Of a DNA stretch of 60,967 nucleotides, positions 40,657 to 58,149 are shown piece after piece. Origin of the DNA: Candidatus Nanopelagicales bacterium (GTDB lineage Bacteria; Actinomycetota; Actinomycetes; S36-B12); assembly GCA_041675125.1 (NCBI GenBank), contig JBAYUM010000001.1:1-60967 (forward strand). The letters run 5' to 3'. The notes below the pieces were generated by a model that worked only from the letters and a program-made list of their open reading frames with translations, had not been told where the DNA came from and searched no databases. Each line of letters starts with the position of its first letter. The stretch's first letter is position 1. A program made the translations under genes and the position numbers.

Positions 40657-41397
40657 ATGCAAGAATCCCATGATATGACTGCCGATCCGGAGGCGGTGCC
40701 CCTGCAGGCACCCGCGCCGCGCAAGCGTAATCCTCGTGGTTCGCTGAACCCAGAGGTCATTCTGGCCGAGGCCTTCCGACTCTGCCGCGAGGAGACTCTC
40801 GACGAGTTGAGCATGCCCAAGCTGGCCAGGCGGCTCGGCGTGGGCGTCACCAGCCTCTACTGGTACTTCCACACCAAGGAAGAGCTCCTCCAGGTGATGC
40901 TCGAGCAGGTGGCCCATGAGTTCCTCCATGCGCTGCCGGATTACGACTCGCTGCCCTGGGATGAGCACTTCCGCCGCTACTTCACCCAGATGCGACGCAT
41001 CTTCCTGGCCAATGAGGTCATCTGCGACTTCCTGGTGATGCGCACCCATATGTCGATCATGAACCCCGGGCAGTTCTTCATCGAGCGTCTCAATCGGGAG
41101 GTCGGAGTGCTCCTCGACGCCGGCTTCGCGCCGGATATCGCCACTCGTGGGTACCAGGCGATGTCGGTCTACACCACGGGTTCGGTTCAGAAGATCCGTC
41201 AACTGCAGATTCGTGGCGAGAACACAGAAGGCAAGATGTTCCCAATCGACGATATGGAGACCATGCAGTCAATCGCCGACAAGTACCCGAACCTGCAGCT
41301 GACCGCCCCGTACTGGCACCGCACCTACTCGACCAATATCGACTATGAGGTCGGCCTCAACCTCATCATCGACGGGCTTCGCACGCACTTGAAGTAG
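40657..41397 (+). CDS. TetR-family transcriptional regulator
   Basis: 246-aa ORF. The HTH is ILAEAFRLCREETLDELSMPKLARRLGVGVTSLYWYFHTKEELL. Confidence 0.9.
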   Translation: MQESHDMTADPEAVPLQAPAPRKRNPRGSLNPEVILAEAFRLCREETLDELSMPKLARRLGVGVTSLYWYFHTKEELLQVMLEQVAHEFLHALPDYDSLPWDEHFRRYFTQMRRIFLANEVICDFLVMRTHMSIMNPGQFFIERLNREVGVLLDAGFAPDIATRGYQAMSVYTTGSVQKIRQLQIRGENTEGKMFPIDDMETMQSIADKYPNLQLTAPYWHRTYSTNIDYEVGLNLIIDGLRTHLK

Positions 41398-45004: not shown

Positions 45005-45027
45005 GCAGCCTTGGCTCTCGCCACCGA

Positions 45028-45660
45028 CTACTCCGACAGGAATCGGAGAACTTCGTCCTGGCACTTGAAGTTCGACGTGGTCGCGTAGTGGTCGACGCCC
45101 TTGAGCACCACCAGCCGGGCATCGGGCAGTGCCGCGGTGAGCGCGTCAGCCGGACCAACCATGTCACGATCGCCAATGACGACGAGTGCCGGAACCGTCA
45201 CCTTCGACAGCTGGCCGAGGTCGGGCATCTCCGTGAAGCCCTTCACGTACCGCTCAACCAAGGCTCGGTCATTGCCAGCTGTCTCAAGCAGCTGGAGCAC
45301 GAGATCTGCCAACTCGAAATCGCCTTCAGCCGGTCGGTGATTCCACATGCCATCGCCAATGCCGAGCAGCACGATCTTGTGGAAGGCCTCAGGCTTGGCC
45401 AGCGCTGCGCGCAGCACCAGGCGTGCACCAGCGCTGAAACCCACCGCGTCCACCGGCCCGATCTCGCTCACCAGATCCACCAGTCGCTGAACGGCCTCTG
45501 TCTCACCGCCGGGCGCCGCGGGTGCCGAGCCGTGACCGGGAAGCTCATGGGCAATCACGGCGAAGCCCTCGGACTGCAGGATGTCGTCCCAGCCGCTCAC
45601 GCCCCAGTTATGCGCGAAGGACGAGCCAAGACCATGAACGAGCACTACAGGAATGGACAT
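45028..45660 (-). CDS. Small alpha/beta-fold hydrolase
   Basis: About 210-aa product from ATG 45660 (MSIPVVLVHGLGSS). It has the oxyanion HG, the nucleophile elbow GFSAG, GDRD, and the C-terminal VDHY. The 362-aa track ORF (to 46116) is an upstream extension antisense to the VWA gene. Confidence 0.8.
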   Translation of the reverse strand: MSIPVVLVHGLGSSFAHNWGVSGWDDILQSEGFAVIAHELPGHGSAPAAPGGETEAVQRLVDLVSEIGPVDAVGFSAGARLVLRAALAKPEAFHKIVLLGIGDGMWNHRPAEGDFELADLVLQLLETAGNDRALVERYVKGFTEMPDLGQLSKVTVPALVVIGDRDMVGPADALTAALPDARLVVLKGVDHYATTSNFKCQDEVLRFLSE

Positions 45661-45697
45661 TCGCCGAGCATAGGACGAACCCAAGGCCGGAGGCAGC

Positions 45698-47089
45698 ATG
45701 CTTTCAACAGTTGAGGGACTCGTTCGCGAACTTCGCACGATTGGCATCCCCGTCTCGACAACGGAGCACATCGACGCCGCTCGGGCCTTGAAGGTCATTG
45801 ACATCAGTGACCGCTCGCAGGTCAAGGCGGCACTCTCAGCAACCATGATCAAGCGCATCGAGCACATGAAGACCTTCGACACGGTCTTCGACCTGTTCTT
45901 CTCGGGACTGGCGCAGTCGGAGATCACCTTCGAACTCGCCGAGGGTGGGCAGGACAACAGCATCGAGGCAATGCTCAACGCCCTCGACGATGACCAACTG
46001 CACGAGATGCTCGTCGATGCCACGGCAGCCAATGACGAACTCATGGTCAATGCCCTGGTGCAGGTGTTCGTCAATCGCAAGGCCAATATCCAGCAAGGCG
46101 CACAGGTTGCGGGCAACCTCTACGTGTTTCGCGTCCTGCGGGCGCTCGACTTGCCCGGCATCCGCGAAGAGCTCATCGACCGCGAGCAGATCGACCCGCA
46201 GAGCCCCGGCGCTGACCTTCAGCAGCGAATCGCCGAGAGCGATGCCGACCACAAGGTCGAGACCTTGCAGCAGAAGGTCGAGGCCGCAGTGCGTGCCCAA
46301 CTCGTCGCTGACCGAGGACCCAGTGCGGTCGCGCGTTCACTTCGATCGAAACTGCCGGAGGATATCGACTTCCTCACCGGATCGACCGCTGAGATCGAAG
46401 CACTCGAATGGACTCTCGCCCCCCTTCCGATCCAGCTCGCCCAGAAGCTTGCCCAGAAGCGATCACATGGCCGCCGCGGCGCAATTGACTTCCGTGGCAC
46501 CGTCCGTCATTCGATGTCCACCGGCGGCGTTCCTGTCGACATCGCCTTCAAGAAGCCTCATCCGCCGAAGCCCGAACTGATCGTGCTCGCTGACATCTCG
46601 GGTTCTGTCGCATCTTTCGCGACATTCACGCTCCAGCTCACATTCGCTATCCGGTCGCAGTTCCGAGCGGTCCGCAGCTTCGTCTTCATCGACGGCATCG
46701 ATGAGGTCACCGACATCATGTCCACGGCTGACAACATCTCGCAGGCCGCCCAGCGCATCGATGAGGAGAAGAAGGGATTCTCTCTCGACGGTCGCTCGGA
46801 CTACGGATCAGCCTTCAAGATCTTCCACAAGCGCTGGGGCCAGCAGATCACCAGCCGCAGCATCGTCCTTATTCTCGGCGACGGTCGCTCGAACTACCGT
46901 CAGCCGAATGCAGACGCCGTCGAATTCATGCACAAGCGTGCGCACCGGGTGTACTGGTTGAATCCTGAGCGCGAGGTGAGCTGGAACGAGGGCGACTCGA
47001 TCATCGCCAAGTACGCCCCGTACTGCAATTCGGTTTTCGAGTGCAGAAATGTTCGGCAACTGAAAGCATTCATCGAAGAACTCGACTAG
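45698..47089 (+). CDS. VWA domain protein, CoxE-like partner of MoxR ATPases
   Basis: 463-aa ORF. The C-terminal VWA domain has a MIDAS-type LADISGSVASF and LILGDGRSNY ... VYWLNPE, characteristic of CoxE-family proteins. Confidence 0.85.
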   Translation: MLSTVEGLVRELRTIGIPVSTTEHIDAARALKVIDISDRSQVKAALSATMIKRIEHMKTFDTVFDLFFSGLAQSEITFELAEGGQDNSIEAMLNALDDDQLHEMLVDATAANDELMVNALVQVFVNRKANIQQGAQVAGNLYVFRVLRALDLPGIREELIDREQIDPQSPGADLQQRIAESDADHKVETLQQKVEAAVRAQLVADRGPSAVARSLRSKLPEDIDFLTGSTAEIEALEWTLAPLPIQLAQKLAQKRSHGRRGAIDFRGTVRHSMSTGGVPVDIAFKKPHPPKPELIVLADISGSVASFATFTLQLTFAIRSQFRAVRSFVFIDGIDEVTDIMSTADNISQAAQRIDEEKKGFSLDGRSDYGSAFKIFHKRWGQQITSRSIVLILGDGRSNYRQPNADAVEFMHKRAHRVYWLNPEREVSWNEGDSIIAKYAPYCNSVFECRNVRQLKAFIEELD

Positions 47090-47644: not shown

Positions 47645-47655
47645 GAGGAATGAAC

Positions 47656-48048
47656 ATGACTGTCAACGTTGGCGATGCCATCCCAACCTTCACCCGCGCC
47701 ACGGGCTTTGCGAACTGGAACCGCTATGCAGCGGTGAACGATGAGTTCGTACCGATCCACATGGACGACGAGGCCGGCGCCGCAGCTGGCAACGGCGGGG
47801 CGTTCGGCATGGGCAACCTCCAGTGGGCCTACCTGCACAACATGCTCCGCGACTGGATGGGGCCGAACGGCGAGATCCTCAGCATCGAGGTGCAGTTCCG
47901 CAGCCCGAACGTCAAGGGCCAGACCGTGACCGCCCATGGCGTGGTCACCGCTGTCGAGGGCGATGTCGTGACCCTCGACGTCTGGACCGAGCAGCAGGAG
48001 GGCACCAAGCTCGCACCGGGCTCGGCCAAGGTCCGCCTGGCCAAGTAG
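47656..48048 (+). CDS. MaoC-like (R)-specific enoyl-CoA hydratase hot-dog subunit, copy 1
   Basis: NWNRYAAVNDEFVPIHMDDEAGAAAG carries the D-x(4)-H-type hydratase motif region. ATG 47656 lies 7 nt after AGGAGG (47643-47648). The track start at 47650 is only 1 nt after the SD. Confidence 0.8.
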   Translation: MTVNVGDAIPTFTRATGFANWNRYAAVNDEFVPIHMDDEAGAAAGNGGAFGMGNLQWAYLHNMLRDWMGPNGEILSIEVQFRSPNVKGQTVTAHGVVTAVEGDVVTLDVWTEQQEGTKLAPGSAKVRLAK

Positions 48049-48135: not shown

Positions 48136-48633
48136 ATGACCGAGTCGTACCTCACTGAGGTGGTGCTGCAGGCCGCGGGCCGCGAGTGCTCGCGTGCGAC
48201 CAGTTACCCGATCGAGGCCTCCGACATCCGCAAGTGGGCTCTCGCCTCCTACTGGCCAGAGCAGCCCCCGCAGCACTTCATCGATGCCGAGGTCGCCCCG
48301 GAGGACTTCGACCCCTTCGCCTGGGGCCCTGCGCACTACGAGTCACTGCTGCCCGACGACGATGGCAGCGTCATCGTCCGCCACGGCATCAACGAACGCG
48401 CCCTCGGCTTCCCCGACTGGAAGTTCCGGGCTGGCCTCAATGGCGGCATGAACTGCACCTATGGGATGCGCATGCACGTCGGTGACGTCATCACGGACAC
48501 CAAGTCATGCGGTGAATACACCGAGCGCCAGGGCCGCAATGGCCTCATGCTCATCACCCAGTCGATCAGTACCTGGACCAATCAGAATGGCGAGGTCGTC
48601 AAGCGCACGATCAACTCCGGGATCAGGTTCTGA
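48136..48633 (+). CDS. MaoC_N / FAS1-like dehydratase N-terminal-type hot-dog protein, copy 2
   Basis: 165-aa paralogue of 47123-47644 (YPIEASDIRKWALASYWPEQPP ... LMLITQSISTWTNQNGEVV). Confidence 0.75.
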   Translation: MTESYLTEVVLQAAGRECSRATSYPIEASDIRKWALASYWPEQPPQHFIDAEVAPEDFDPFAWGPAHYESLLPDDDGSVIVRHGINERALGFPDWKFRAGLNGGMNCTYGMRMHVGDVITDTKSCGEYTERQGRNGLMLITQSISTWTNQNGEVVKRTINSGIRF

Positions 48634-49034
48634 GCACCATCGCAGTCGCCGCGATCGGCGACCTTGTTCGCGATGTCTCAATCCAGTCCGGGGTCGACAA
48701 TTGGAACAGGTTCGCGGCGGTCAACGATGAATTCCTGCCCCACTCCATGGACGACTCCGCCGCGCGCGCGGAAGGCTTCCCCGCAGCAATAGGCATGGGC
48801 AACTACCAGTGGGCGATCCTGCATCGCATGCTTCGTGGGTACACCGGACCCAACGGCGTGATTGTTCGGGTCGAAATCAAATTCCGACGCCCGAACGTCA
48901 AGGGGCAGATCCTGACACCCATGGGCCGCGTGACCTCTGTCGACGGCCGGGTCATCGGTCTGGATGTATGGACCGAGGACCAGACCGGCGCGCGTCTTGG
49001 TGAGGGAACAGCCCAAGTCGTCCTGGCAGCGTAG
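48630..49034 (+). CDS. MaoC-like hydratase subunit, copy 2; 5' end lacks a canonical start codon
   Basis: The frame is open from 48516. Residues encoded upstream of the first ATG (48747) align with copy 1 (IGDLVRDVSIQSGVDNWNRFAAVNDEFLPHSMDD versus VGDAIPTFTRATGFANWNRYAAVNDEFVPIHMDD). No ATG, GTG or TTG occurs in frame between 48516 and 48747. Candidate starts are a CTG at 48630, which overlaps the upstream TGA as CTGA, or an ATC at 48639. Confidence 0.55.
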   Translation: MSTIAVAAIGDLVRDVSIQSGVDNWNRFAAVNDEFLPHSMDDSAARAEGFPAAIGMGNYQWAILHRMLRGYTGPNGVIVRVEIKFRRPNVKGQILTPMGRVTSVDGRVIGLDVWTEDQTGARLGEGTAQVVLAA

Positions 49035-49144: not shown

Positions 49145-50080
49145 CTAGCCTGCGAACGGATCGCCTGGAATGTCCTCATCCGTGAAGAACATCGGAGCAC
49201 CCAGGGTGTCCTCGACGTTGCAGTGGATGAGGTTGTCACGCAGTCGTGTGGTGCGAACACCCTGCTTGTTCAGCCATGCCTCTGCCGAGTTGAGGTCCTT
49301 GACCTTCCAGCGCAGCGAGTAGATGCAGTTGCCCCACTTCTCGACATGGCGCCCAAGATCGGAATCCATCTCGAGGGGTTGAGCCAGCTGCAGCAGGCAG
49401 TCACCCAGGATCACGGTCTGGTACTTGCACTGCAGGTCCTCATCTATTCCATCAGCCAATGGAACTGCCTGCATGATGTCGACATAGGTTGCCACGGCCG
49501 AATCAAGATCCTTGACGCCGAGCGTGACGTAGTTGAATCGCTCGAAGGTCATCGGATGCTGTTCGTACAGGCGCATCAACTCCGTGTAGGTGTCCTGATC
49601 CTTGGGGTCGTTGCGCATATCGATCTTGCAGAGCTCGACCATCAGGCCTGCAGTGTCGCGAGGGCTCGGGTAGAAGTAGAGCGTCTCGGGATCGAGCTTC
49701 TCGATCTTGCCACCACCCGGAGCGCCGATGTACACGCCCTTCTCAAGCAGGCGATCTGCGAGACCGGCGAGGTCCTCGACCTTGTAGCCCACCGAGTGCA
49801 GGTGCTCACCGAACTTCGAGTAGAACTTGCCCACCGGCTTGTTCACGTCGACCGGGAAGTTGGGGGCCATGGTCTCGATGCAGACATCCGCAACCATGAG
49901 CAGGCTCGCCCAGCGGTCCTCCGGCGGCAGGTAGTTGAGTTCATCGATACCCATGTAGAGGTACCCACCCAGACCACGACGGTAGAACTCGTTCAACTTA
50001 TTCACATCGTCGGTCATATGCACGATATGAATCATGTTGCCGATGCCGTAGTCACCGGTTGTCTTGTATTGCCTTCTCAT
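49145..50080 (-). CDS. Two-domain VOC (glyoxalase/bleomycin-resistance/dioxygenase fold) protein, paralogue 1
   Basis: 311-aa ORF. It has repeated beta-alpha-beta-beta-beta-type modules with candidate metal ligands in NMIHIVHM, GEHLHSVGYKVEDL and GLMVELC. The second domain begins FNYVTLGVKDLDSA. Confidence 0.75.
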   Translation of the reverse strand: MRRQYKTTGDYGIGNMIHIVHMTDDVNKLNEFYRRGLGGYLYMGIDELNYLPPEDRWASLLMVADVCIETMAPNFPVDVNKPVGKFYSKFGEHLHSVGYKVEDLAGLADRLLEKGVYIGAPGGGKIEKLDPETLYFYPSPRDTAGLMVELCKIDMRNDPKDQDTYTELMRLYEQHPMTFERFNYVTLGVKDLDSAVATYVDIMQAVPLADGIDEDLQCKYQTVILGDCLLQLAQPLEMDSDLGRHVEKWGNCIYSLRWKVKDLNSAEAWLNKQGVRTTRLRDNLIHCNVEDTLGAPMFFTDEDIPGDPFAG

Positions 50081-50121
50081 TGATCTCCTTTAAGGGCTTC
50101 GGCCTCGTTGGTAGGTCTGTC

Positions 50122-51057
50122 TTACTCAGCGAACGGGTCGCCCGGAATGTCCTCAGTGGTGAAGAACATCGGCGCACCGAAAGTGTCCTCTTCATTCGCC
50201 TGCAGCAGGTTGTCGCGGAGTCGCTCCGTGCGCACACCCTGGCTGTTGAGCCAGGTGGCAGCTGCGTCGAGATCGCGTACCTTCCAGCGCAGGCTGTAGA
50301 TCATGTTGCCCCACTTGGCCACATGGCGACCCAGATGCGAATCCTCCTCGAGCGGCTGAGCCAACTGAAGCAGGCAGTCACCGAGGTGCAGGGTCATGTA
50401 CTTGCACTGCATGGCCTCATCGATGCCCTCTTGAAGCGGGATCGCCTGCATCGTGTCTACGTACGTCTGCACGGCACTGTCGAGGTCCTTGCAGCCAAGA
50501 GTCACGTACGAGAAGCGCTCGAAGGTCATGGGATGGAACTTCCACATGCGGAACAGTTCCGACCAAGTTGGCAGGTCCTTGGGGTCGCTCGGCATGTCGG
50601 TCTTGCAGAGCTCGACCATCAAGCCGGCAGTATCGCGGGGACTGGGATAGAAGTAGGCGGTGTCCTCCTCGAGCTTGTCGATCTTGCCGCCGCCAGGTCG
50701 GCCGATGTACACGCCCTTGGAGATCAGCCGGTCAGCGAGGCCTGCCAGATCATCGACCTTGTAGCCCACTGAGTGCAGGTGCTGGCCGAACTTCGAGTAG
50801 AACTTGCCCACGGGCTTGTTCACGTCCGGCGGCATATTCGGCGCCATGGTCTCGATGCACACGTCAGAGACCATCAGCAGGCTTGCCCAGCGATCCTCGA
50901 TCGGAAGATAGGTGGGTGCATCCGGGCCCATGAAGACGAATCCGCCGAAGACGCGTCGATAGAAGTTATTGAGCTCCTCCACATCGTCGGTCATGTGGAC
51001 GAAGTGGATCATGTTGCCGATGCCGTAGTCACCGGTCTTCTTGTACTGGCGCTGCAT
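50122..51057 (-). CDS. Two-domain VOC-fold protein, paralogue 2
   Basis: ATG 51057 (MQRQYKKTGDYGIGNMIHFVHM) lies 5 nt after GGAGG and gives exactly 311 aa, like the other two copies. The track ORF (to 51183) adds 42 unsupported codons. Confidence 0.75.
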   Translation of the reverse strand: MQRQYKKTGDYGIGNMIHFVHMTDDVEELNNFYRRVFGGFVFMGPDAPTYLPIEDRWASLLMVSDVCIETMAPNMPPDVNKPVGKFYSKFGQHLHSVGYKVDDLAGLADRLISKGVYIGRPGGGKIDKLEEDTAYFYPSPRDTAGLMVELCKTDMPSDPKDLPTWSELFRMWKFHPMTFERFSYVTLGCKDLDSAVQTYVDTMQAIPLQEGIDEAMQCKYMTLHLGDCLLQLAQPLEEDSHLGRHVAKWGNMIYSLRWKVRDLDAAATWLNSQGVRTERLRDNLLQANEEDTFGAPMFFTTEDIPGDPFAE

Positions 51058-51217
51058 GGAGGCCTCCATCGAAGATGCGTGCAAGTCCGAAGGCAAAGTT
51101 AGGCCTCTGCAGCAGCCAAGGAGGTCAAAACAGGGAAATATTCGGCGGAATTCGGATGAACCCGGCAACCCGTCGCGTTCCAACTGGCCACGACTACTAG
51201 TGACCTTTGCGGATATC

Positions 51218-51237
51218 GCAGGGACCTAGGTCCCTGC
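51218..51237. promoter_or_regulatory. Perfect 20-bp palindrome GCAGGGACCTAGGTCCCTGC (DosR-box-like core GGGAC-N4-GTCCC)
   Basis: Read directly and checked to be self-complementary over all 20 nt. It lies in the 263-bp divergent region between VOC paralogue 2 (start 51057) and the amidohydrolase (start 51321). Confidence 0.45.
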
Positions 51238-51320
51238 CAGTTCCCAGATCACAGTTCCACTCTGAGTCCACGAGTACTCGCCGCACTCGCGCCGAGACCG
51301 TATCAATGGCTGGAGGAAAT

Positions 51321-52550
51321 ATGACACATTCGGCAATGGATGCCCAACAAGTGGAATCCATCATGGGCGGGCTCACCATCATCGACGGTGACAGTCACTT
51401 CGCTGAGCCGGCTGATCTTTGGACCTCTCGGGCACCAGCCAAGTACAAGGACCGCGTGCCGCAGTTGGGCGTGGTCGATGGAACGACGTGCTGGATGCTC
51501 GAGGGCAACTACTGGACAGGCCTCGGTGGTCACACGATCGCCAAGGGACAAACCAAGACACTCGGCGTGTTGAGCCTGCCGTACGAGGAGATCGACGACT
51601 CGGCATGGTCAGTTCCAGGTCGTCTGGAGCTCATGGACAAGCAGGGCGTCTACGCGGCGGTGCTGTATCCCAACTCCATCGGATTCGCATCGAATGCGGT
51701 CATGGGCATTCAGGATATCGAGTTCCGCAACATCGTCAGCAGCATCTACAACGACGGCATGGTCGATTTTCAGCACGAGTCAGGAAACCGCCTGCTCCCG
51801 CAGTGCATTCTCCCCATTTGGGATATGGACCTGACCGTCAAGGAGATGGCGCGACTGCATGATCAGGGCATCCGTGGTTTCACGGTGACTGACAAGCCGC
51901 AGATGGTGGGGCTCCCCGACCTTGACTCGCCCTATTTCGCTCCGATGTGGGCCTTGGCAAATGAGCAAGGTGCGGTCATCAACTTCCATATCGGCAGCGG
52001 CCTTCCGCCAAGCACTGGTGAGGCCTCACGTACGAACACGGTCGTCTCAGGGGCGAACTCCGACATCTACTGGCAGTCATTCGGTCCTCAGCGCCGCCTT
52101 GCAGTCCTTGCAACGCAGTTCTACATGTCGAATGTCCGAGTGATCACGAACCTGATCATGAGCAACATGTTCGATCGCTATCCCAACCTCAAGATCGTGT
52201 CTGCCGAAAGCGGCATCGGATGGGTGCCCTTCGTGCTGGAAGCATGTGAGTACCAACTCGACGAGATGGTGACGACGAAGGACGAGAGGGGTTTCCAGAA
52301 GCTCCGTCCCACCGAGTACTTCCGCAACCACATCTACGTGATGAGCTGGTTCGAGAAGTCAGCGATGAAGGTGCTCGACGATGTCGGCGTCGACAACGTC
52401 ATGCTCATGACTGACATCCCGCACCCCACCTGCTTGTACCCCAACTCCCGTGAGTACTTCGCAGAGGTGACCAAGGACCTTGCACCTGATGTCCGCCGCA
52501 AGTTGGTGCAGGATAACGCAGCGCGGGTTTACGGAATCACCATTCCATAG
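51321..52550 (+). CDS. Amidohydrolase_2 (ACMSD/LigW/LigI-type metal-dependent hydrolase/decarboxylase) family protein
   Basis: IIDGDSHFAEP (N-terminal metal ligands), INFHIGSG and LMTDIPHP (C-terminal Asp/His block). Start ATG 51321 follows GGAGG (51312-51316). ATG 51306 is possible. The track start at 51207 is unlikely. Confidence 0.8.
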   Translation: MTHSAMDAQQVESIMGGLTIIDGDSHFAEPADLWTSRAPAKYKDRVPQLGVVDGTTCWMLEGNYWTGLGGHTIAKGQTKTLGVLSLPYEEIDDSAWSVPGRLELMDKQGVYAAVLYPNSIGFASNAVMGIQDIEFRNIVSSIYNDGMVDFQHESGNRLLPQCILPIWDMDLTVKEMARLHDQGIRGFTVTDKPQMVGLPDLDSPYFAPMWALANEQGAVINFHIGSGLPPSTGEASRTNTVVSGANSDIYWQSFGPQRRLAVLATQFYMSNVRVITNLIMSNMFDRYPNLKIVSAESGIGWVPFVLEACEYQLDEMVTTKDERGFQKLRPTEYFRNHIYVMSWFEKSAMKVLDDVGVDNVMLMTDIPHPTCLYPNSREYFAEVTKDLAPDVRRKLVQDNAARVYGITIP

Positions 52551-52571
52551 CCGGTACTGTTCACCGAAAGA

Positions 52572-52607
52572 GATGAAGGGCGGGTGCAACAGCACCCGCC
52601 CTTCATC
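52572..52607. terminator. Bidirectional hairpin between convergent amidohydrolase and VOC paralogue 3
   Basis: GATGAAGGGCGGGTGC-aaca-GCACCCGCCCTTCATC is a perfect 16-bp stem, read directly. Confidence 0.7.
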
Positions 52608-52627
52608 ATGGCCTCAGACCGCAAGGA

Positions 52628-53563
52628 CTACTTGGCGAATGGGTCGCCAGGGATCTCCTCGTCAGTGAAGAACCAAGGTGCACCGAGGGTGTCCTCGACG
52701 TTGCAGACAATGAGGTTGGTGCGTGGACGGGTCGTGCGAATGCCCGCCTTGTTGAGCCATGCGTTTGCCGACTCGATGTCCTTGACCTTCCAGCGCAGGC
52801 TGTAGATGAAGTTGCCGTACTTCTCGACGTGGCGGCCGAAATCGGTATCGGCCTCGAGAGGCTGGGCGAGCTGCAGAAGGCAATCGCCGAGCTGCATCGT
52901 GTAGTACTTGCACTGCAGATCGTCGTCGATGCCCTCTTGCAGCGGAACTGCCTGCATGATGTCGACGTACGTCTTCACTGCTGCGTCAAGATCCTTGACA
53001 CCGAGCGTGACGTAGCTGAAGCGATCGATCGTCATCGGGTGCTGCTCGAACAGGCGCATGAGCTCCGTGTAGGTATCAGCGTCCTTGGGGTCATTCGGCA
53101 TGTCGATCTTGCACAACTCGACCATGAGGCCGGCGGTGTCGCGCGGGCTCGGGTAGAAGTAGTGCGTGTCCTCGTCGAGCTTCTCGATCTTGCCGCCGCC
53201 AGGTGCACCGATGTAGATGCCCTTCTCGAGCATGCGGGCTGCGAGGCCGGACAGGTCATCGACCTTGTAGCCCACCGAGTGCAGGTGCTCACCGAACTTC
53301 GAGTAGAACTTGCCAACGGGCTTGTTCACATCGACCGGGAAGTTCGGGGCCATGGTCTCGATGCAGACATCGCCGACCATGAGCAATGACGCCCAGCGGT
53401 CTTCTGGCGGGAGATAGCTCGGCACGTCAACGGTCATGAAGCCGAAGGCCCCGAAGACACGGTGGTAGAGCTCGTTGAGCTTGTTCACGTCATCCGACAT
53501 GTGGATGACGTGGATCATGTTGCCGATGCCGTAGTCACCGGTCTTCTTGTAGTCGCGCTTCAT
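52628..53563 (-). CDS. Two-domain VOC-fold protein, paralogue 3
   Basis: 311-aa ORF. By my hand count of a gapless alignment it has 58 differences from paralogue 1 (about 81 % identity). It includes an identical run MAPNFPVDVNKPVGKFYSKFGEHLHSVGYKV. Confidence 0.75.
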   Translation of the reverse strand: MKRDYKKTGDYGIGNMIHVIHMSDDVNKLNELYHRVFGAFGFMTVDVPSYLPPEDRWASLLMVGDVCIETMAPNFPVDVNKPVGKFYSKFGEHLHSVGYKVDDLSGLAARMLEKGIYIGAPGGGKIEKLDEDTHYFYPSPRDTAGLMVELCKIDMPNDPKDADTYTELMRLFEQHPMTIDRFSYVTLGVKDLDAAVKTYVDIMQAVPLQEGIDDDLQCKYYTMQLGDCLLQLAQPLEADTDFGRHVEKYGNFIYSLRWKVKDIESANAWLNKAGIRTTRPRTNLIVCNVEDTLGAPWFFTDEEIPGDPFAK

Positions 53564-53607: not shown

Positions 53608-53940
53608 CTAGGCCACGTAGCCGGTGTTGCCCGCCCAGTGCAGGACGGCAGGATCGTTCTCGCGGTCCATGGTGTCGGTCTGGGTGAAGCCTGCGGCGTT
53701 CGAGAACAACTGGCCGGCGGCCGTCGCGATGTCGGCCTCGTCGATCTCGTAGATGGCGACGAAGCGATTGAGCTTCGCTCCGGTCTGCGGATCGGTGAGC
53801 TGGTACCGCGTGACATTGCTGATCGATGGGATCGCAGCACGCACCTCGGGGATGTGCGTGCCCTCGTACCAGGACGCGAACTCAGGGATCTGCGTCTCGG
53901 TGGTGGCGCTCGAGAAGGCGATGAGCAGGGTATTGGCCAT
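53608..53940 (-). CDS. Small alpha+beta-barrel protein (EthD/Dabb-like; family assignment tentative)
   Basis: 110-aa ORF in operon position between the 3-hydroxyacyl-CoA dehydrogenase and VOC paralogue 3. Its size and the pattern LLIAFSS...FASWYEGTHIPEV...RYQL...FVAIYEID fit ferredoxin-like dimeric barrels. This is not verified by search. Confidence 0.45.
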   Translation of the reverse strand: MANTLLIAFSSATTETQIPEFASWYEGTHIPEVRAAIPSISNVTRYQLTDPQTGAKLNRFVAIYEIDEADIATAAGQLFSNAAGFTQTDTMDRENDPAVLHWAGNTGYVA

Positions 53941-54004: not shown

Positions 54005-54859
54005 TTACGAGTCGTAGCGGTAGAAGCCGCGTCCGGTCTTGCGGCCGAGCCAGCCGAGCCGCACGTACTGCGTGAGCATCTTCGGCGGGAAGTACTTGGG
54101 ATCCTTCGTCTCGTTGTAGATCGAGACGCCCTGGGCGTGCACGATGTCCAGGCCGACGAGGTCGGCCAGGCGGAACGGGCCCATCGGGTGGTTGAAGCCG
54201 AGGGTCATGACGTCATCGATCGACTCCATCGGAGCCACGCCGCTCTCGAAGGCACGGATGGCATCATTGAAGAACGGGGTGATGAGCAGGTTGCCGATGA
54301 AGCCGGGCACGTCGTTGACGACCACCGGACTCTTGCCCATGCGCTGGGCGAGCTCCACCATCGCGGCCACGTCGTCCTCGGACGTGACCGGAGTCTTGAT
54401 GACCTCGACGAGCTTCATGGCCGGCACCGGGTTGAAGAAGTGCAGGCCCACGACGCGCTCAGGGCGGGTGGTGGCCGCAGCCAGGACCACCAGGGGAATC
54501 GTGGACGTGTTGGACGCGATGAAGGTGTTGGGCCCGACGAGCTTGTCGATGCGCCCCAGGATGTCGTTCTTGAGCTCCACATCCTCGTAGACCGCTTCAA
54601 CCACGATGTCGGCACCGGCGACATCGCCCAGGTCGGTGGTAATGGTGAACAGCTCGCGTGCCTTGGCCGCTACCTCCTCGGTGATCTTGCCGCGCTTGAG
54701 GGTGCCGTCGAGGCCTGCGTTGACCCGGTCACGCGCACGCTGGGCGCCGGCCTCACTGGTCTCGACGCCGACGACCTCGATACCGGTCTGCGCCGCGACT
54801 TGGATGATGCCGGTGCCCATGACGCCGCAGCCGACGACTGCCATCTTGTTGACTGTCAC
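54005..54859 (-). CDS. 3-hydroxyacyl-CoA (3-hydroxybutyryl-CoA-type) dehydrogenase
   Basis: KMAVVGCGVMGTGI (NAD fold), GLHFFNPVPAMKLVEVI and PGFIGNLL. GTG 54859 lies 8 nt after AAGGAG. The track start at 54898 is 13 codons upstream. Confidence 0.9.
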   Translation of the reverse strand: MTVNKMAVVGCGVMGTGIIQVAAQTGIEVVGVETSEAGAQRARDRVNAGLDGTLKRGKITEEVAAKARELFTITTDLGDVAGADIVVEAVYEDVELKNDILGRIDKLVGPNTFIASNTSTIPLVVLAAATTRPERVVGLHFFNPVPAMKLVEVIKTPVTSEDDVAAMVELAQRMGKSPVVVNDVPGFIGNLLITPFFNDAIRAFESGVAPMESIDDVMTLGFNHPMGPFRLADLVGLDIVHAQGVSIYNETKDPKYFPPKMLTQYVRLGWLGRKTGRGFYRYDS

Positions 54860-54932
54860 GTGAATGTCTCCTTGATCGCGCAGGCCGCGGCCGCGCATGG
54901 TCCGTCTGGTGATGATGGGACGCTAGTACAGA

Positions 54933-54980: not shown

Positions 54981-56159
54981 CTAGGCCTTGGGAACCTCGA
55001 TGATGACGGCGCCGCCCTGGCCACCGCCGGCACACATGGTCGACAGGCCGATGCCGCCGCCACGACGACGAAGCTCGTGGATGAGCGTTGCGATCTGGCG
55101 GGTGCCCGACGCTGCCACGGGGTGGCCCAGTGAGCAGCCACTGCCGTAGATGTTCACCTTCTCCTCATCGATGCCCATGATCTTGCATGCGGCTACGGGG
55201 ACGGAGGCGAAGGCCTCATTGATCTCCCACAGGTCGATGTCCTCGACCTTGAGGCCGGCACGCTCGAGCACCTTCTCAGCAGCGGCAAGGGCTCCCATGC
55301 CGGTGTACTTGGGATCAACGCCAGCAGCGGCCCATGCCTTGACCGTGGCAAGTGGGGTCAGGTTGTGCTCGGCGGCGTACTTGTCGCTGACCACGACTAC
55401 GGCCGAGGCTGCGTCGTTGACGCCCGACGAGTTGCCTGCCGTGATCGAGAAGTCCTCGATCTCCGGGTGCAAGGGCTTCAGGGTGGCCATCTTCTCCAGC
55501 GTCGAACTGCCACGTGGGTGCTCATCGACTGCGAACTCGACCGTCGAGCCGTCCTTGGTCTTCACCGTGATGGGACGGATCTCGTCGAGGAACTTGCCGT
55601 CCTCGATCGCCTTGGCCGCACGCATGTGCGAACGCCAGGCCCACTTGTCCATGTCCTCGCGGCTCAGGCCGGCCTTCTGTGCAACGTTCCAGCCAACGGA
55701 CAGGCTCACGTCGTCCGTCGCGTCCTCGCGGTGGGGGAATGTCGGGGCCATGCGGGTCTCGAACTCGTCCTCGGTGCCCAGGACGCGGAAGACGGTACGG
55801 GGGCCTGCGGACGAGGCCTGGACACCGCCGGCGACGACGACGTCCTCCATGCCTGCCTTGATCGAGGCGGCGGCATTGCCCAGTGCAGCAAGGCTTGAGG
55901 CGCAGTGGCGGTTGATCGCCTGGCCGGAGACATCCTGAAGGCCGTTGGCTACCGCGGCGTAGCGAGCGAGGTCGCCGCCGCCATAGCCTGACTCGCCGAG
56001 GATGACGTCGTCAACGTCATTGCCATCGATGCCCGCGGCCTTGATGGCCTCACCAATGATGAAAGTGGCCAGATCCTCGGCAGAGGTCTCGCTCAGGGTG
56101 CCCTTGCGAGCGGTGCCAATCGGGGTACGAACTGCACTGACAATGACGGCTTCGGTCAC
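54981..56159 (-). CDS. Acetyl-CoA C-acyltransferase (degradative thiolase)
   Basis: 392-aa ORF with a GTG start. It has NRHCASSLAAL (nucleophilic Cys), GCSLGHPVAASG and MCAGGGQGGAVIIE (C-terminal His/Cys blocks). Confidence 0.9.
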   Translation of the reverse strand: MTEAVIVSAVRTPIGTARKGTLSETSAEDLATFIIGEAIKAAGIDGNDVDDVILGESGYGGGDLARYAAVANGLQDVSGQAINRHCASSLAALGNAAASIKAGMEDVVVAGGVQASSAGPRTVFRVLGTEDEFETRMAPTFPHREDATDDVSLSVGWNVAQKAGLSREDMDKWAWRSHMRAAKAIEDGKFLDEIRPITVKTKDGSTVEFAVDEHPRGSSTLEKMATLKPLHPEIEDFSITAGNSSGVNDAASAVVVVSDKYAAEHNLTPLATVKAWAAAGVDPKYTGMGALAAAEKVLERAGLKVEDIDLWEINEAFASVPVAACKIMGIDEEKVNIYGSGCSLGHPVAASGTRQIATLIHELRRRGGGIGLSTMCAGGGQGGAVIIEVPKA

Positions 56160-56398: not shown

Positions 56399-57163
56399 AT
56401 GGAGCTCAAGGGCGCATCCGCCATCGTGACCGGCGGAGCCGGCGGCTTCGGCGAGGCAACTGTCCGCCGTCTGGTCGACAAGGGCGTCAAGGTCGTCATC
56501 GCCGACCTGCACGACGAGCGGGCGACCGCACTGGCCAAGGAGCTGGGCTCGGCCGTCCAGTACGTCCGCACCGACATCACCGACGAGCAGAACGTCATCG
56601 AGGCCATCAATGCAGCACAGGCCATGGCCCCTCTCCGCGTGGCCGTTGCAGTGCACGGCGGCCCAGCAGCCGGCAAGCGCTTCGTCGGTCGCAATGGCGA
56701 GACCTACCCGGTCGAAACCTTCCGTCGCACGGTCGAGATCTTCCTGGTCGGCAACTTCACGGTGCTCAGCCGCGCAGCAGCGGTCATGAGTCAGAACGAG
56801 CCCTTGGCGGACAACCAGCGCGGCGTGTGCATCGGCACCGCATCCATCGCCGGCTTCGAGGGCCAGGTCGGCCAGTCCGACTACTCGGCAGCCAAGGGCG
56901 GCGTCATCGGCATGACCCTCACCGCGGCACGTGACCTCGGTCCAGCCGGCATCCGCGTCATGACCATCGCACCAGGCACCTTCCACACGTACGCCTACGG
57001 CGATGTTGATGCAGCCACCCTGAACGAGCGCTTTGGCGCTCTCATCCCCAACCCCAAGCGCATGGGACACCCGGATGAGTACGCGCAGCTCGCACTCCAG
57101 ATCTGCGAGAACGACTTCCTCAACGGCTACACCATCCGCCTCGATGGAGCCCAGCGCTTCTAA
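56399..57163 (+). CDS. SDR, type-2 3-hydroxyacyl-CoA dehydrogenase (HSD17B10-like), tandem copy 1
   Basis: 254-aa ORF with TGGAGGFG, NEPLADNQRGVCIGTASIAGFEGQVGQSDYSAAKGG and FLNGYTIRLDGAQRF. It is colinear with my recollection of human HSD10. Confidence 0.85.
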   Translation: MELKGASAIVTGGAGGFGEATVRRLVDKGVKVVIADLHDERATALAKELGSAVQYVRTDITDEQNVIEAINAAQAMAPLRVAVAVHGGPAAGKRFVGRNGETYPVETFRRTVEIFLVGNFTVLSRAAAVMSQNEPLADNQRGVCIGTASIAGFEGQVGQSDYSAAKGGVIGMTLTAARDLGPAGIRVMTIAPGTFHTYAYGDVDAATLNERFGALIPNPKRMGHPDEYAQLALQICENDFLNGYTIRLDGAQRF

Positions 57164-57176
57164 GCAGGACCCAGAA

Positions 57177-57211
57177 GTGGCCGGCGGATGTTCCGTCGGC
57201 CACTTTTCCTT
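57177..57211 (+). terminator. Rho-independent-type terminator after SDR copy 1
   Basis: GTGGCCG-gcggatgttcc-gtCGGCCAC followed by TTTTCCTT, read directly. Confidence 0.55.
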
Positions 57212-57291
57212 GTATCCCCTGCACGCGTGGCACACGACAGCCATAATTCGCAGACTCGACAACCCAAGCACTTGGTACATCTGGAGGAACT

Positions 57292-58068
57292 ATGGAACTC
57301 AAGGGCGCATCCGCCATCGTGACCGGCGGAGCCGGCGGCTTCGGCGAGGCAACAGTCCGCCGTCTGGTCGACAAGGGCGCCAAGGTCGTCATCGCCGACC
57401 TGCACGACGAGCGCGCCAACGCACTCGCCAAGGAGCTGGGCTCGGCCGTCCAGTACGTCCGCACCGACATCACCGACGAGCAGAACGTCATCGAGGCCGT
57501 CAATGCGGCCCAGGAGATGGCCCCGCTGCGCGTGGCCGTTGCAGTGCATGGCGGCATGGGCGGCCCCGGCGGCGGCGCGGCGCGCATGGTCGACCGCCAC
57601 GGCGTGCCGATCTCGCTGGAGTCCTTCCGATTCTCGGTCGAGATCTACCTCATCGGTCACTTCACCGTGATCTCCCGCGCGGCTGCGGTCATGAGCCAGA
57701 ACGAGCCGGATGACGACAACCAGCGTGGTGTCTGCATCGGCACGGCCTCCATCGCCGGCTTCGAGGGCCAGGTCGGCCAGGTGTCGTACTCGGCGGCCAA
57801 GGGCGGCGTCATCGGCATGACCCTCACCGCGGCACGTGACCTGGGCCCGGCTGGGATCCGCGTGATGACCATCGCGCCAGGCACCTTCCACACCTATGCC
57901 TACGGCGATATGCCGATCGAGCAGCTCAACGAGCGCTTCGCCTCACTCATCCCCAACCCCAAGCGCATGGGTCGGGCCGATGAGTACGCGCAGCTGGCCA
58001 TGCAGATCGTCGAGAACAACTTCCTCAACGGCTACACCATCCGCCTCGATGGAGCGCAGCGCTTCTGA
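57292..58068 (+). CDS. SDR, type-2 3-hydroxyacyl-CoA dehydrogenase (HSD17B10-like), tandem copy 2
   Basis: 258-aa paralogue of copy 1. The first 264 nt differ from copy 1 at 16 positions by hand count. Confidence 0.85.
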   Translation: MELKGASAIVTGGAGGFGEATVRRLVDKGAKVVIADLHDERANALAKELGSAVQYVRTDITDEQNVIEAVNAAQEMAPLRVAVAVHGGMGGPGGGAARMVDRHGVPISLESFRFSVEIYLIGHFTVISRAAAVMSQNEPDDDNQRGVCIGTASIAGFEGQVGQVSYSAAKGGVIGMTLTAARDLGPAGIRVMTIAPGTFHTYAYGDMPIEQLNERFASLIPNPKRMGRADEYAQLAMQIVENNFLNGYTIRLDGAQRF

Positions 58069-58081
58069 CGAACACCAGATG

Positions 58082-58119
58082 AAACGGCCGACGGGATCTC
58101 CCGTCGGCCGTTTCTCTTG
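58082..58119 (+). terminator. Rho-independent-type terminator after SDR copy 2
   Basis: AAACGGCCGACGG-gatctc-CCGTCGGCCGTTT followed by CTCTTG, read directly. Confidence 0.7.
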
Positions 58120-58149
58120 GCCCATCAGTGCATGCGTAAGGTTTGAGCA

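Follow-up and report, generated by a model that had tools for sequence, protein, structure and literature searches.

Three paralogues of a two-domain VOC family with sequence likeness to methylmalonyl-CoA epimerase in an actinobacterial cluster of acyl-CoA genes

The window (the whole stretch of 60,967 nt analysed here) encodes three paralogous two-domain VOC proteins which, judged by their profile matches, most resemble methylmalonyl-CoA epimerase (MCE) and not ring-cleaving dioxygenases. They are embedded in what is probably a catabolic island that depends on CoA and O2 and degrades a bulky carboxylic acid, the substrate probably being branched or alicyclic (terpenoid- or steroid-like). Our preferred reading, to which we assign a probability of roughly 0.4, is that the family comprises enolate-forming epimerases or isomerases acting on an acyl-CoA. 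This is a large conserved VOC family without known function, structure or curated model, and it sits in a cluster without a described pathway that combines recently recognised amidohydrolase-related dinuclear oxygenases (AROs), steroid-type CoA enzymes, a fused carboxyltransferase and a MoxR/VWA chaperone pair. The catabolic pathway occurs both in soil Streptomyces and their relatives and in freshwater Actinomycetota, which are abundant, and it matters for how recalcitrant organic matter of branched or alicyclic structure is turned over. Solving the VOC reaction would help define it and would probably add a reaction type or a class of substrates not yet seen with the VOC fold; were the protein simply to epimerise an intermediate already known, only the annotation would improve.

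The three genes and their family

The three VOC genes are found on the minus strand as ATG-initiated open reading frames (ORFs) of 936 nt including the stop codon (TAG/TAA/TAG), each encoding 311 aa. Paralogue 1 (49145-50080; ORF, Pfam Glyoxalase_4 + Glyoxalase) stands second in an operon of two genes, VOC2-VOC1, paralogue 2 (50122-51057; ORF, alignment, Pfam) lies exactly 41 bp away and is divergent from an ARO-like gene, and paralogue 3 (52628-53563; ORF, Pfam, AF2 model) is the last gene of a thiolase, 3-hydroxyacyl-CoA dehydrogenase, EthD-like, VOC operon. For copy 2, the ORF lister gives a longer TTG-initiated frame reaching 51183, but the ATG at 51057 appears the likelier start because a GGAGG lies 7 nt upstream, the product has 311 aa and its first residues agree with the family N-terminus, M-x-R-x-Y-K-K-T-G-D. 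The proteins were aligned with MAFFT over 311 columns with zero gaps, giving identities of 81 % (1/3), 77 % (1/2) and 73 % (2/3), with nucleotide identities of 75-79 %. The initial annotation had described three exactly 311-aa paralogues at these coordinates, the 41-bp spacing, about 81 % identity between copies 1 and 3 with lower values to copy 2, copy 3 as the last gene of a thiolase, dehydrogenase, EthD-like operon, and the invariant run MAPN(F/M)P(V/P)DVNKPVGKFYSKFG(E/Q)HLHSVGYKV, and all of these were recovered here.

The VOC fold is confirmed because all three copies exceed the Pfam gathering cut-offs for Glyoxalase_4 (PF13669; 43-52 bits, cut-off 27) and Glyoxalase (PF00903; 29-44 bits, cut-off 20.6), and the AF2 model of copy 3 (pLDDT 94.7) displays two beta-alpha-beta-beta-beta-type domains, spanning residues 13-151 and 179-300. 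On this evidence, the proteins belong to the VOC superfamily by homology, and a chance match is ruled out. The NCBIfam profile search returned no equivalog, leaving only generic Pfam matches; its top match was the MCE model TIGR03081 (E 1e-12 to 1e-14, 48-55 bits versus a cut-off of 114.95). As no close PDB entry was found and database names are generic only, the earlier description as an uncharacterised two-domain VOC family stands. Profiles of the separate domains matched MCEs: the C-terminal domain found the enzymes of Mtb (6bu2, 1e-10) and S. coelicolor (5e-9), and the N-terminal domain found 1jc4 (6e-5, over residues 18-151). MCEs were the only solved proteins below E 1e-3 for either profile, followed by HPPD 3zgj at 3.8e-3. 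Foldseek, run with the VOC model, gave 258 matches in the PDB at E<=1e-3; every one of the 50 listed is a two-domain VOC enzyme of HPPD/HmaS type. The family (~310 aa) is confined to Actinomycetota, with 57-92 % identity across many genera, and its members below E 1e-30 form 67 clusters when grouped at 50 % identity; remoter ~300-aa relatives occur in other groups.

The candidate active site

The MCE metal ligands, which we take to be His12, Gln65, His91 and Glu141 in 1jc4 numbering (consistent with the chain numbering), served as the reference. In the alignment of the N-terminal domain with 1jc4, H18, E54, E69 and E149 correspond to His12, Glu48, Gln65 and Glu141, the E54/Glu48 equivalence falling in a stretch of low similarity, and these four residues are invariant in 49/49 family members. 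The His91 position is taken by an invariant Ser96, and the invariant H95 and H93, at -1 and -3 from it, nominally point to the opposite strand face; therefore, the candidate metal site is not a plain epimerase site. The candidate His/His/Glu ligands initially proposed are not a dioxygenase triad but an epimerase/glyoxalase-I-like set restricted to the N-terminal domain, with an invariant Ser in place of the canonical third ligand.

Across the 49 members, 42/160 columns are invariant in the N-terminal domain, among them clustered His, Glu, Asp, Arg and Cys residues, versus 15/133 in the C-terminal domain, and all invariant residues are kept in the three window copies. At the MCE ligand positions, the C-terminal domain carries Y184, Q231 and S255, and the Glu is absent. 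It is a degenerate copy of the same module that has lost the epimerase-type residues, and catalysis probably takes place in the N-terminal domain.

The likeness to MCE (TIGR03081; 1jc4, 6wf6, 6bu2, 3rmu) comprises a Glyoxalase_4-type module shared with both VOC domains, N-terminal residues that align with His12, Gln65 and Glu141 and, more tentatively, with Glu48, and a setting among acyl-CoA enzymes, often adjoining a carboxyltransferase. MCE, however, is a homodimer of single-domain subunits of ~140 aa (130-150), whereas the VOC family is a fused 311-aa protein that has Ser for His91, no site in its C-terminal domain and a score of half the equivalog cut-off, along with a 17-residue extension at the N-terminus (KTGDxGIG) and a partner gene, both conserved. 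Glyoxalase I has a four-position metal site, to which two modules contribute their first and last strands, and uses Glu for enolate/enediolate proton transfer, as proposed for the VOC family, but it acts on a thiol-hemithioacetal, gave no sequence match above noise, and has the third ligand that is missing here.

The gene cluster and its conservation

The left border of the cluster is marked by genes for ETF alpha (36471-37427), ETF beta (37479-38261) and an Fe-S/CCG oxidoreductase (38325-40532), all on the minus strand and assigned by Pfam, which are likely the electron outlet for the acyl-CoA dehydrogenases (ACADs); genes further left are unrelated. They are followed by the small (41457-42587, minus) and large (42654-43895, minus) subunits of a heteromeric ACAD, both with Pfam ACAD domains, whose best NCBIfam matches are PimD/PimC and IpdE2 and whose best PDB matches are Tcur3483 (6wy8) and 4x28, which are steroid-type ACADs. 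A MoxR-type AAA ATPase (44093-45004, plus; Pfam, and NCBIfam MadB-like at 318 bits, below cut-off), an alpha/beta hydrolase (45028 to about 45870, minus; Pfam) and a CoxE-type VWA protein (45698-47089, plus; Pfam, and MadC-like at 174 bits, below cut-off) form a triad that is conserved in many loci. Two plus-strand hotdog hydratase pairs of FAS1_DH-region and MaoC subunits lie at 47123-47644/47650-48048 (Pfam) and at 48136-48633/about 48630-49034 (Pfam for the first subunit). Stretch 48747-49034 had no Pfam match, and this second MaoC subunit was assigned from its membership of BLAST cluster 11 with 47650-48048 and from the frame left open upstream of it, which encodes the N-terminal residues of the paralogue.

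On the other side of the VOC genes, the paralogue 3 operon (minus strand) comprises a thiolase (acetyl-CoA C-acyltransferase; 54981-56159; Pfam Thiolase_N/C, TIGR01930 at 381 bits, above cut-off), a 3-hydroxyacyl-CoA dehydrogenase (HADH; 54005-54898; Pfam 3HCDH_N + 3HCDH, NCBIfam 3-hydroxybutyryl-CoA dehydrogenase subfamily at 311 bits) and a 110-aa EthD-like, possibly dimeric ferredoxin-like protein (53608-53940). The name of the last was qualified: a remote relationship to EthD holds, but Pfam EthD (PF07110) reaches only 14.9 bits (E 0.064), below the gathering threshold of 22 bits. The same model is sub-threshold in 10/16 homologues (best E 4e-4), and the top Foldseek matches are the EthD structures 2ftr and 3bf4 (E ~1e-2, probability 0.96-0.99, TM ~0.45, from a model with a pLDDT of only 70). 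Beyond the operon are a tandem SDR pair (56399-57163, Pfam adh_short, and 57292-58068, from the same BLAST cluster, 6; both plus), a TesB-like acyl-CoA thioesterase (58150-58926, plus; Pfam Acyl_CoA_thio, 4HBT_3) and a third SDR (58923-59732, minus; Pfam adh_short).

Two PF04909 genes complete the cluster. As a class, AROs hydroxylate with O2 at a dinuclear Fe/Mn cofactor. The ARO signature consists of an N-terminal D-x-H and a C-terminal D-x-P-H-x-[D/E] (PMC13154177). The gene at 59910-60967 (plus), cut by the window end with 352 aa seen, contains both motifs (DDH and DYPHSD), as do 29/30 of its cluster orthologues in a motif scan (DDH ... DYPHSD), and is assigned to the canonical ARO type on these motif positions; it occupies the same gene position as the two ARO genes of locus L001. 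The divergent gene wedged between VOC2 and VOC3 (51321-52550, plus; Pfam Amidohydro_2), whose ORF opens at TTG 51207 with a likely ATG at 51321, has DSH, but its second motif reads DIPHPT and lacks the final acidic residue of the signature; its best PDB matches are DitZ (8uyr, 2.8e-28) and PtmU3 (6omp, 5e-23). Overall, the signature of the PF04909 neighbours is that of dinuclear oxygenases (PtmU3/DitZ type) and not of hydrolases. DitZ and PtmU3 are the nearest matches of these proteins, and the PtmU3/DitZ diterpenoid pathways also place ARO genes alongside CoA-dependent beta-oxidation-like genes for bulky substrates, but the similarity is only ~100 bits, and no gene for a Rieske ferredoxin was found in the window. 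We know of no report of a VOC protein of this family in the ptm or dit clusters. The initial statement that all neighbours are CoA-thioester enzymes does not hold, since the two PF04909 ARO-type genes, the MoxR/VWA pair and the alpha/beta hydrolase are also among them.

Across genera, the order thiolase, HADH, (fused carboxyltransferase), EthD-like, VOC is conserved with VOC last, and MaoC/hotdog hydratase pairs, steroid-type heteromeric ACADs, MoxR/VWA and ARO-signature PF04909 proteins are also nearby. Neighbour frequencies, counted over the 36 loci with full flanks, were 64 % for ACAD, 61 % each for thiolase, carboxyltransferase and MaoC, 58 % for ECH, 53 % each for HADH and ARO-signature PF04909 genes, and 42 % for an SSADH/HpaE-like aldehyde dehydrogenase. 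The gene directly upstream of VOC is most commonly EthD-like (27 loci), with a carboxyltransferase in 10, and the ARO gene is less tightly linked to VOC than are the genes for the EthD-like protein, carboxyltransferase, HADH and thiolase. A carboxyltransferase beside an epimerase-like VOC protein may parallel propionyl-CoA carboxylase/MCE logic; in the freshwater clade including this window, no carboxyltransferase was found near the VOC genes. Some VOC loci contain SCP2-thiolase/DUF35 pairs. Among five remoter relatives examined, three sit among CoA enzymes, the fourth is accompanied by just an ECH and an SDR at a distance of several kb, and the fifth has no CoA enzymes. The conserved actinobacterial neighbourhood, together with the MCE likeness of both domains, lends strong support to the initial proposal that the VOC protein is tied to CoA-thioester metabolism.

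Possible reactions and paralogue history

The fold, family, conservation, gene context and paralogue history rest on direct evidence; from them we infer metal use, a CoA substrate and proton-transfer chemistry for the family. In the preferred epimerase/isomerase reading, the N-terminal His/Glu/Glu centre (H18, E69, E149), probably with a divalent metal, would bind the two oxygens of a 1,3-dioxygenated acyl-CoA, candidates being 2-carboxy-, 3-oxo- or 3-hydroxyacyl-CoA, and thereby stabilise the thioester enolate. Two Glu residues, E149 and E54, the latter at the position of the second acid/base Glu of the epimerase, would then move the C2 proton, and the resulting epimerisation or isomerisation would let the neighbouring stereospecific dehydrogenases, hydratases and thiolase proceed. 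Against this reading stand the best TIGR03081 score (55 bits versus 115), Ser96 at the His91 position, the best global fold matches, HPPD and HmaS, being oxygenases, and the freshwater loci lacking a carboxyltransferase near VOC.

The same enolate-stabilising centre might instead serve a C-C bond-cleaving enzyme, namely a retro-aldol/retro-Claisen lyase or a decarboxylase, which we consider rather unlikely. Here, the ARO would hydroxylate the beta-carbon or a methyl of an acyl-CoA with a quaternary alpha-carbon, and VOC would cleave the resulting 3-hydroxy-/2-carboxy-acyl-CoA, refractory to ordinary beta-oxidation enzymes. PtmU3 performs such a hydroxylation in platensimycin biosynthesis. The frequency of ARO-signature genes, the two in the window, the steroid/bulky-substrate type of the ACADs and hydratases, and the general suitability of His/Glu/Glu plus a second Glu for enolate chemistry are in keeping with this proposal, as are the SCP2-thiolase/DUF35 pairs, unusual C-C cleavage belonging to such clusters. 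However, to our knowledge no VOC enzyme is an acyl-CoA lyase or decarboxylase, the linkage to ARO is the looser one, and cleavages of this kind could be the work of the MaoC/hotdog pairs or of SCP2-thiolases. A more specific version, which we hold to be less likely still, is that VOC and its EthD-like partner constitute a new metal-dependent lyase/decarboxylase completing an undescribed aerobic route for quaternary or heavily branched carboxylic acids such as terpenoid, resin-acid or steroid-like compounds. ARO dinuclear oxygenases would replace blocked dehydrogenase/hydratase steps, and the MoxR/VWA pair would mature one metalloenzyme. If true, the paralogue expansion in freshwater Actinomycetota would reflect the use of such a compound family in lakes.

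An O2-dependent dioxygenase (extradiol, hydroquinone-cleaving or HPPD-like) that attacks an aromatic or enediol intermediate, perhaps a CoA-borne one, corresponds to the alternative raised in the initial annotation and is decidedly unlikely. It would fit the two VOC barrels per chain shared with HPPD/HmaS (Foldseek E ~1e-14, TM 0.6-0.68), the aerobic pathway (AROs), the SSADH/HpaE-like gene and the source annotations 'catechol 2,3-dioxygenase-like', but the latter are generic COG-style labels, and identity to HPPD/HmaS is 10-12 % over proteins ~40-80 residues longer. Type I extradiol dioxygenases (BphC, HsaC, DitC) are also two-domain VOC proteins of ~300 aa from catabolic clusters for polycyclic compounds; no significant sequence match to them was obtained (E 0.01-0.08 over ~30 residues). 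Scores were 12-16 bits for BphC TIGR03213 and HpaD TIGR02295 (cut-offs 366 and 321), in line with the initial remark that the protein is unlike HsaC/BphC, and 20-24 bits for HPPD TIGR01263 (cut-off 277). In BphC and HPPD, the C-terminal domain is catalytic, with a 2-His-1-Glu site in HPPD and a catalytic triad in the extradiol enzymes. The VOC family has Y184 (37/49), Q231 and Y254 (47/49) at these positions and F/T without Glu on the last strand, and its N-terminal set includes only one securely placed His. Moreover, genes for ring-hydroxylating oxygenases or dihydroxylating enzymes were not found in the cluster, and the conserved alpha/beta hydrolase falls outside the meta-cleavage-product hydrolase type.

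A non-catalytic role, as a ligand-binding/sequestering protein like the VOC binders of bleomycin and mitomycin or as a scaffold for the EthD-like protein or an oxygenase, would suit the incomplete metal site, the degenerate C-terminal domain and the constant pairing with a small EthD-like protein, but is very improbable given the invariant N-terminal cluster, the terminal place of VOC in an enzyme operon in many genera and purifying selection on all copies.

That selection is evident from dN/dS values of 0.16-0.23 among the three copies, and orthologues of each paralogue are found in other freshwater MAGs: paralogue 1 in loci L002, L004, L006 and L007, paralogue 2 in L005 and L007, and paralogue 3, at 98 % identity, in L001. 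These sequence data support old functional paralogues under purifying selection, and the triplication is an old expansion common to a freshwater actinobacterial clade. The initial view that it implies selection for three related specificities holds as regards retention under selection, and three specificities are a reasonable inference, but having three copies is no peculiarity of this window. Hydratase, SDR and ARO genes next to them have multiplied too and, like these, the three VOC copies most likely act on related substrates or on successive intermediates.

The VOC paralogues and their family

Three open reading frames of 936 nt and 311 aa each were recovered on the reverse strand at 49145–50080 (copy 1), 50122–51057 (copy 2) and 52628–53563 (copy 3). 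Gap-free alignment yielded identities of 81% for copies 1 and 3, 77% for copies 1 and 2, and 73% for copies 2 and 3. The initial annotation was thus borne out as to the frames and their coordinates, the 41-bp spacing of copies 1 and 2 in tandem and the 81% identity, as well as the position of copy 3 as the operon's final gene, following those for a thiolase, a 3-hydroxyacyl-CoA dehydrogenase (HADH) and a 110-aa protein. A Shine–Dalgarno-like sequence lies 5' of each copy. Copy 2 has an alternative upstream TTG start at 51183; the ATG at 51057 is likelier because it fits the family N-terminus and is preceded by GGAGG.

All three proteins passed the thresholds of the Pfam models Glyoxalase_4 and Glyoxalase. 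None came near the cut-off of any NCBIfam model, the top one being methylmalonyl-CoA epimerase (MCE; TIGR03081) at 48–55 bits versus a cut-off of 115, while the BphC, HpaD and HPPD models gave 12–24 bits versus cut-offs of 277–366. A single-sequence search of the PDB retrieved weak MCE matches only and no close solved structure. An AlphaFold2 model computed with 49 homologues (pLDDT 94.7, pTM 0.92) comprises two VOC domains, spanning residues 13–151 and 179–300. Foldseek comparison of this model with the PDB placed HPPD and hydroxymandelate synthase on top, at 10–12% identity and a TM-score of about 0.6, which reflects the generic two-barrel VOC architecture.

A sequence search over 5.8 billion proteins returned 238 relatives. 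The best 120 of these share 57–92% identity and are almost all 305–325 aa long, except for four shorter, apparently truncated entries; their named sources are all actinomycetes or actinobacterial MAGs, and their only labels are 'VOC family protein', 'hypothetical' and 'catechol 2,3-dioxygenase-like lactoylglutathione lyase family enzyme'. The nearest genome is that of a 'Candidatus Nanopelagicales' MAG, at 98% identity. A profile search over 1.84 billion cluster representatives gave 67 matches below an E-value of 1e-30 and 1279 below 1e-3, many of them two-domain proteins of 290–320 aa; those looked up carried generic labels only, and some derive from Dehalococcoidia. A literature search found no publication on the family or its cluster type. 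The earlier description of an uncharacterised two-domain VOC family accordingly holds, given these labels, the NCBIfam scores and the PDB search. The VOC fold was already known, and MCE is the closest functional analogue; the family nevertheless stands apart as a conserved two-domain group whose site is altered, which has its own partner gene and whose pathway context is undescribed.

Candidate catalytic residues

A whole-family profile searched against the PDB retrieved MCEs only, via the C-domain (6BU2 at 1e-10; Streptomyces coelicolor MCE at 5e-9), and a profile of the N-domain alone matched Propionibacterium shermanii MCE (1JC4) at 6e-5 over residues 18–151. The metal ligands of 1JC4, which we take to be His12, Gln65, His91 and Glu141, in agreement with the chain numbering of the alignment, align with N-domain residues H18, E69, S96 and E149, respectively. 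Glu48, which acts as acid/base in MCE, as does Glu141, aligns with E54 in a stretch of low similarity. All five family residues, along with H21, H93 and H95, are invariant in 49 family members. A flanking V-D-D-[IL] motif, common to the family N-domain and MCE, makes the alignment of Ser96 with His91 look secure; relative to S96, H95 lies at −1 and H93 at −3. From the matches at H18, E54, E69 and E149, the N-domain is predicted to retain both putative acid/base glutamates and all but one of the four ligand positions. Of the His/His/Glu ligand set proposed initially, the conservation of candidate residues was upheld, and their nature and location were revised to H18/E69/E149 of the N-domain, with serine at the position of MCE His91.

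The equivalent C-domain positions are occupied by Y184, Q231 and Y254–S255, and the last strand lacks a glutamate. Many relatives of 22–41% identity carry His/Glu/His there, including the distant relatives P0154, P0157, P0162 and P0163 (alignment A5), which indicates that the subfamily of the window has probably undergone a specific loss of a second site and that the superfamily ancestor may have had two sites per chain. In another distant relative, P0307, the N-domain histidines are lost instead. Invariant columns number 42 of 160 in the N-domain versus 15 of 133 in the C-domain. This polarity is the reverse of that in BphC and HPPD, whose C-terminal domain is catalytic. Membership of the classical extradiol dioxygenases or HPPD was rejected on the model scores and the loss of the C-domain triad, in line with the original remark that the proteins are unlike the HsaC/BphC type.

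Gene neighbourhood and proposed reaction

Sixty-one genomic loci were fetched and all their ORFs clustered, antisense shadow ORFs being removed by overlap and GC3, and the clusters were labelled via Pfam and NCBIfam. The neighbourhood is kept in Streptomyces, Actinomadura, Microtetraspora, Amycolatopsis, Pseudonocardia, Nocardioides, Arthrobacter, Janibacter, Blastococcus, Kineosporia, Actinoplanes and freshwater MAGs. Isolates that carry the cluster include Janibacter limosus NBRC 16128, Streptomyces prunicolor NBRC 13075, Pseudonocardia kunmingensis DSM 45301 and an Arthrobacter sp. Its core operon encodes a thiolase, HADH, a fused AccD–AccA-type carboxyltransferase, a protein of ~110 aa and, last, the VOC protein, whose gene is directly preceded by that of the small protein in 27 loci and by the carboxyltransferase gene in 10. 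Among the 36 loci with full 10-kb flanks, an ACAD small subunit is present in 64%, thiolase, carboxyltransferase and MaoC in 61% each, crotonase (ECH) in 58%, a PF04909 protein and an ArsR regulator in 53% each, and a VWA protein and an SSADH-like aldehyde dehydrogenase in 42% each. The hydratases are hotdog pairs of an FAS1_DH-region subunit and a MaoC subunit. The ACADs are heteromeric, resemble PimC/PimD and IpdE2 in NCBIfam, and have as closest solved relatives Tcur3483 and 4X28, which are steroid-type ACADs.

The small partner (53608–53940, reverse strand, in the window) had no Pfam match at normal thresholds and no PDB sequence match. Pfam EthD was found below threshold in 10 of 16 partner homologues (best E-value 4e-4), and a model with a moderate pLDDT of 70 retrieved EthD-family crystal structures first (probability 0.96–0.99, E-value about 1e-2), so that its former label 'EthD-like' is acceptable for a remote relationship only. 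Homology with the 'AtuA_ferredoxin' preceding a distant VOC relative was rejected (hhalign probability 0.8%).

The carboxyltransferase (478 aa) belongs to the VOC operon of soil actinomycetes, in which it lies just upstream of the EthD-like and VOC genes (loci L010, L012–L015, L017, L022–L026, L028, L031–L034, L036, L038, L040, L042–L044, L047, L050 and L060), and is absent from the freshwater clade with multiple VOC copies. No biotin-carrier or biotin-carboxylase gene was found beside it, and a weak match to biotin-independent malonate decarboxylase (gamma subunit) suggests possible decarboxylase activity.

Another conserved element is the triad of MoxR ATPase, alpha/beta hydrolase and CoxE-type VWA protein (44093–47089 in the window), also found in loci L002, L004, L006, L008, L010, L020, L026, L046 and L048. 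The nearest NCBIfam models for the ATPase and the VWA protein are 'MadB' and 'MadC', both below cut-off, and a literature search on these names found no paper. By analogy with NorQD (PMC9976466, PMC13036017), the MoxR/VWA pair may mature one metalloenzyme of the cluster, the ARO (see below) and VOC proteins being candidate clients.

The PF04909 gene between copies 2 and 3 (51321–52550, forward strand) encodes a protein closest to DitZ (8UYR, 2.8e-28) and PtmU3 (6OMP, 5e-23), the LigW- and ACMSD-type decarboxylases being much more distant. The reaction of PtmU3 is beta-carbon hydroxylation on a diterpenoid acyl-CoA with a quaternary alpha-carbon. DitZ and PtmU3 belong to the amidohydrolase-related dinuclear oxygenases (AROs), C–H hydroxylases with an N-terminal D-x-H motif and a C-terminal D-x-P-H-x-D/E motif, the latter absent from PF04909 hydrolases and decarboxylases (PMC13154177, PMC10811679); the substrate of DitZ is dehydroabietic acid (PMC13154177). 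The full C-terminal motif occurs in 29 of 30 PF04909 proteins of VOC clusters, mostly as DDH plus DYPHSD. The sole exception is the 51321–52550 product (DSH plus DIPHPT), possibly an oxygenase that has diverged or else a non-redox derivative. A second window copy with canonical motifs (DDH, DYPHSD) starts at 59910 on the forward strand, where the nearest MAG has its ARO genes, and is truncated by the end of the window at 60967; lacking a stop codon before that point, it was missing from the ORF listing. A LigW/ACMSD-type decarboxylase or hydrolase role was rejected on the PDB ranking and the ARO motifs, and the PF04909 neighbours are predicted to be oxygenases. The pathway would therefore be aerobic and include C–H hydroxylation, and the substrates of ARO relatives, together with the steroid-type ACADs and hydratases, point to a bulky, branched or alicyclic acid. 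A motif search for a Rieske ferredoxin serving the AROs gave matches only in frames overlapping annotated genes. The initial view that the neighbours are all CoA-thioester enzymes was not sustained, the PF04909/ARO, MoxR/VWA and alpha/beta hydrolase proteins being counterexamples.

Three of five remoter VOC relatives looked up lie amid CoA enzymes: one is flanked by crotonases, a TesB-like thioesterase and a luciferase-like oxidoreductase; one has CoA transferases, a crotonase, an SDR and a P450 nearby; and one lies in an operon of ECH, AtuA, AtuA-ferredoxin, VOC and CoA-ligase adjoining an SCP2-thiolase/DUF35 pair. Around the fourth, the genes are unrelated except for a crotonase and an SDR several kb off, and the fifth, from short Dehalococcoidia-like contigs, lacks CoA genes in its vicinity.

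Taken together, the data favour an enzyme that would bind an acyl-CoA intermediate and form a thioester enolate at the MCE/glyoxalase-I-like centre of the N-domain. The simplest reaction would then be proton transfer at C2, as epimerisation or isomerisation, to which we assign a probability of roughly 0.4. No acyl-CoA carboxylase to pair with an epimerase was found elsewhere in the window. It is rather doubtful that the same centre breaks a C–C bond, as a retro-aldol/retro-Claisen lyase or a decarboxylase acting downstream of the ARO hydroxylase. A dioxygenase is unlikely: the domain that is normally catalytic is degenerate, none of the dioxygenase models reached its cut-off, and no ring-hydroxylating or meta-cleavage hydrolase genes that would support it are present. 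The conserved alpha/beta hydrolase, which as a meta-cleavage-product hydrolase would have favoured a dioxygenase, gave only weak matches to chloroperoxidase F and monoacylglycerol lipase, leaving that identity unsupported. A non-catalytic role is most improbable, and the leftover probability falls to reactions outside these readings.

History of the paralogues and layout of the window

Neighbour-joining analysis of 68 family members assigned the window copies to three distinct sub-lineages; each has orthologues in other freshwater MAGs, and all lie within one clade, sister to Janibacter. Related MAGs have two or three tandem VOC copies, one with three directly after the EthD-like gene, and an independent duplication occurred in Geodermatophilaceae. 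Between the window copies, dS is 0.8–1.1 and dN/dS 0.16–0.23, and no family-invariant residue has been lost, from which we conclude that the copies are old and that each has been maintained. The selection first read from the triplication thus stands as maintenance; the triplication itself is not special, given the copy numbers in related MAGs and the hydratase pair, SDR and ARO genes present two, three and two times, respectively, in the window. Multiplication in this lineage extends to the whole pathway and not the VOC gene alone, an arrangement consistent with several related substrates but no proof of them.

The catabolic island begins at the ETF genes (36471) and occupies the rest of the window rightwards; everything to its left is unrelated. 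Its left border comprises ETF alpha and beta and a 735-aa Fe-S/CCG-domain oxidoreductase (36471–40532, reverse strand), the last of which resembles EtfD, the membrane ETF-oxidising enzyme of mycobacteria; together they are probably the electron outlet of the heteromeric ACADs. Two tandem SDR paralogues and a third on the opposite strand lie at 56399–59732. Transporters and unrelated enzymes occupy 7–19 kb, and cytochrome bd, ABC exporters, a kinase and a sigma factor 19–36 kb. The latter stretch includes an ordinary, unrelated respiratory block (19719–31815) with a CopD–CtaG fusion protein (19719–21791), a GAF/HisKA_3 sensor kinase (24143–25849), cytochrome bd subunits II and I (29366–31815) and two half-size ABC exporters, probably CydDC. 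The ORFs at 8370–9284 (forward) and 40588–41202 (reverse) had no Pfam match; the second overlaps an opposite-strand TetR-family gene (40657–41397, cluster c42) and is probably a shadow ORF.

The ORF listing gave the second MaoC-like subunit (48630–49034, forward strand) as 95 aa starting at 48747. The reading frame stays open 5' of that position and encodes the missing conserved N-terminus, and the CTG codon at 48630 shares bases with the preceding TGA (cTGA), which suggests a start other than ATG, GTG or TTG, with translational coupling.
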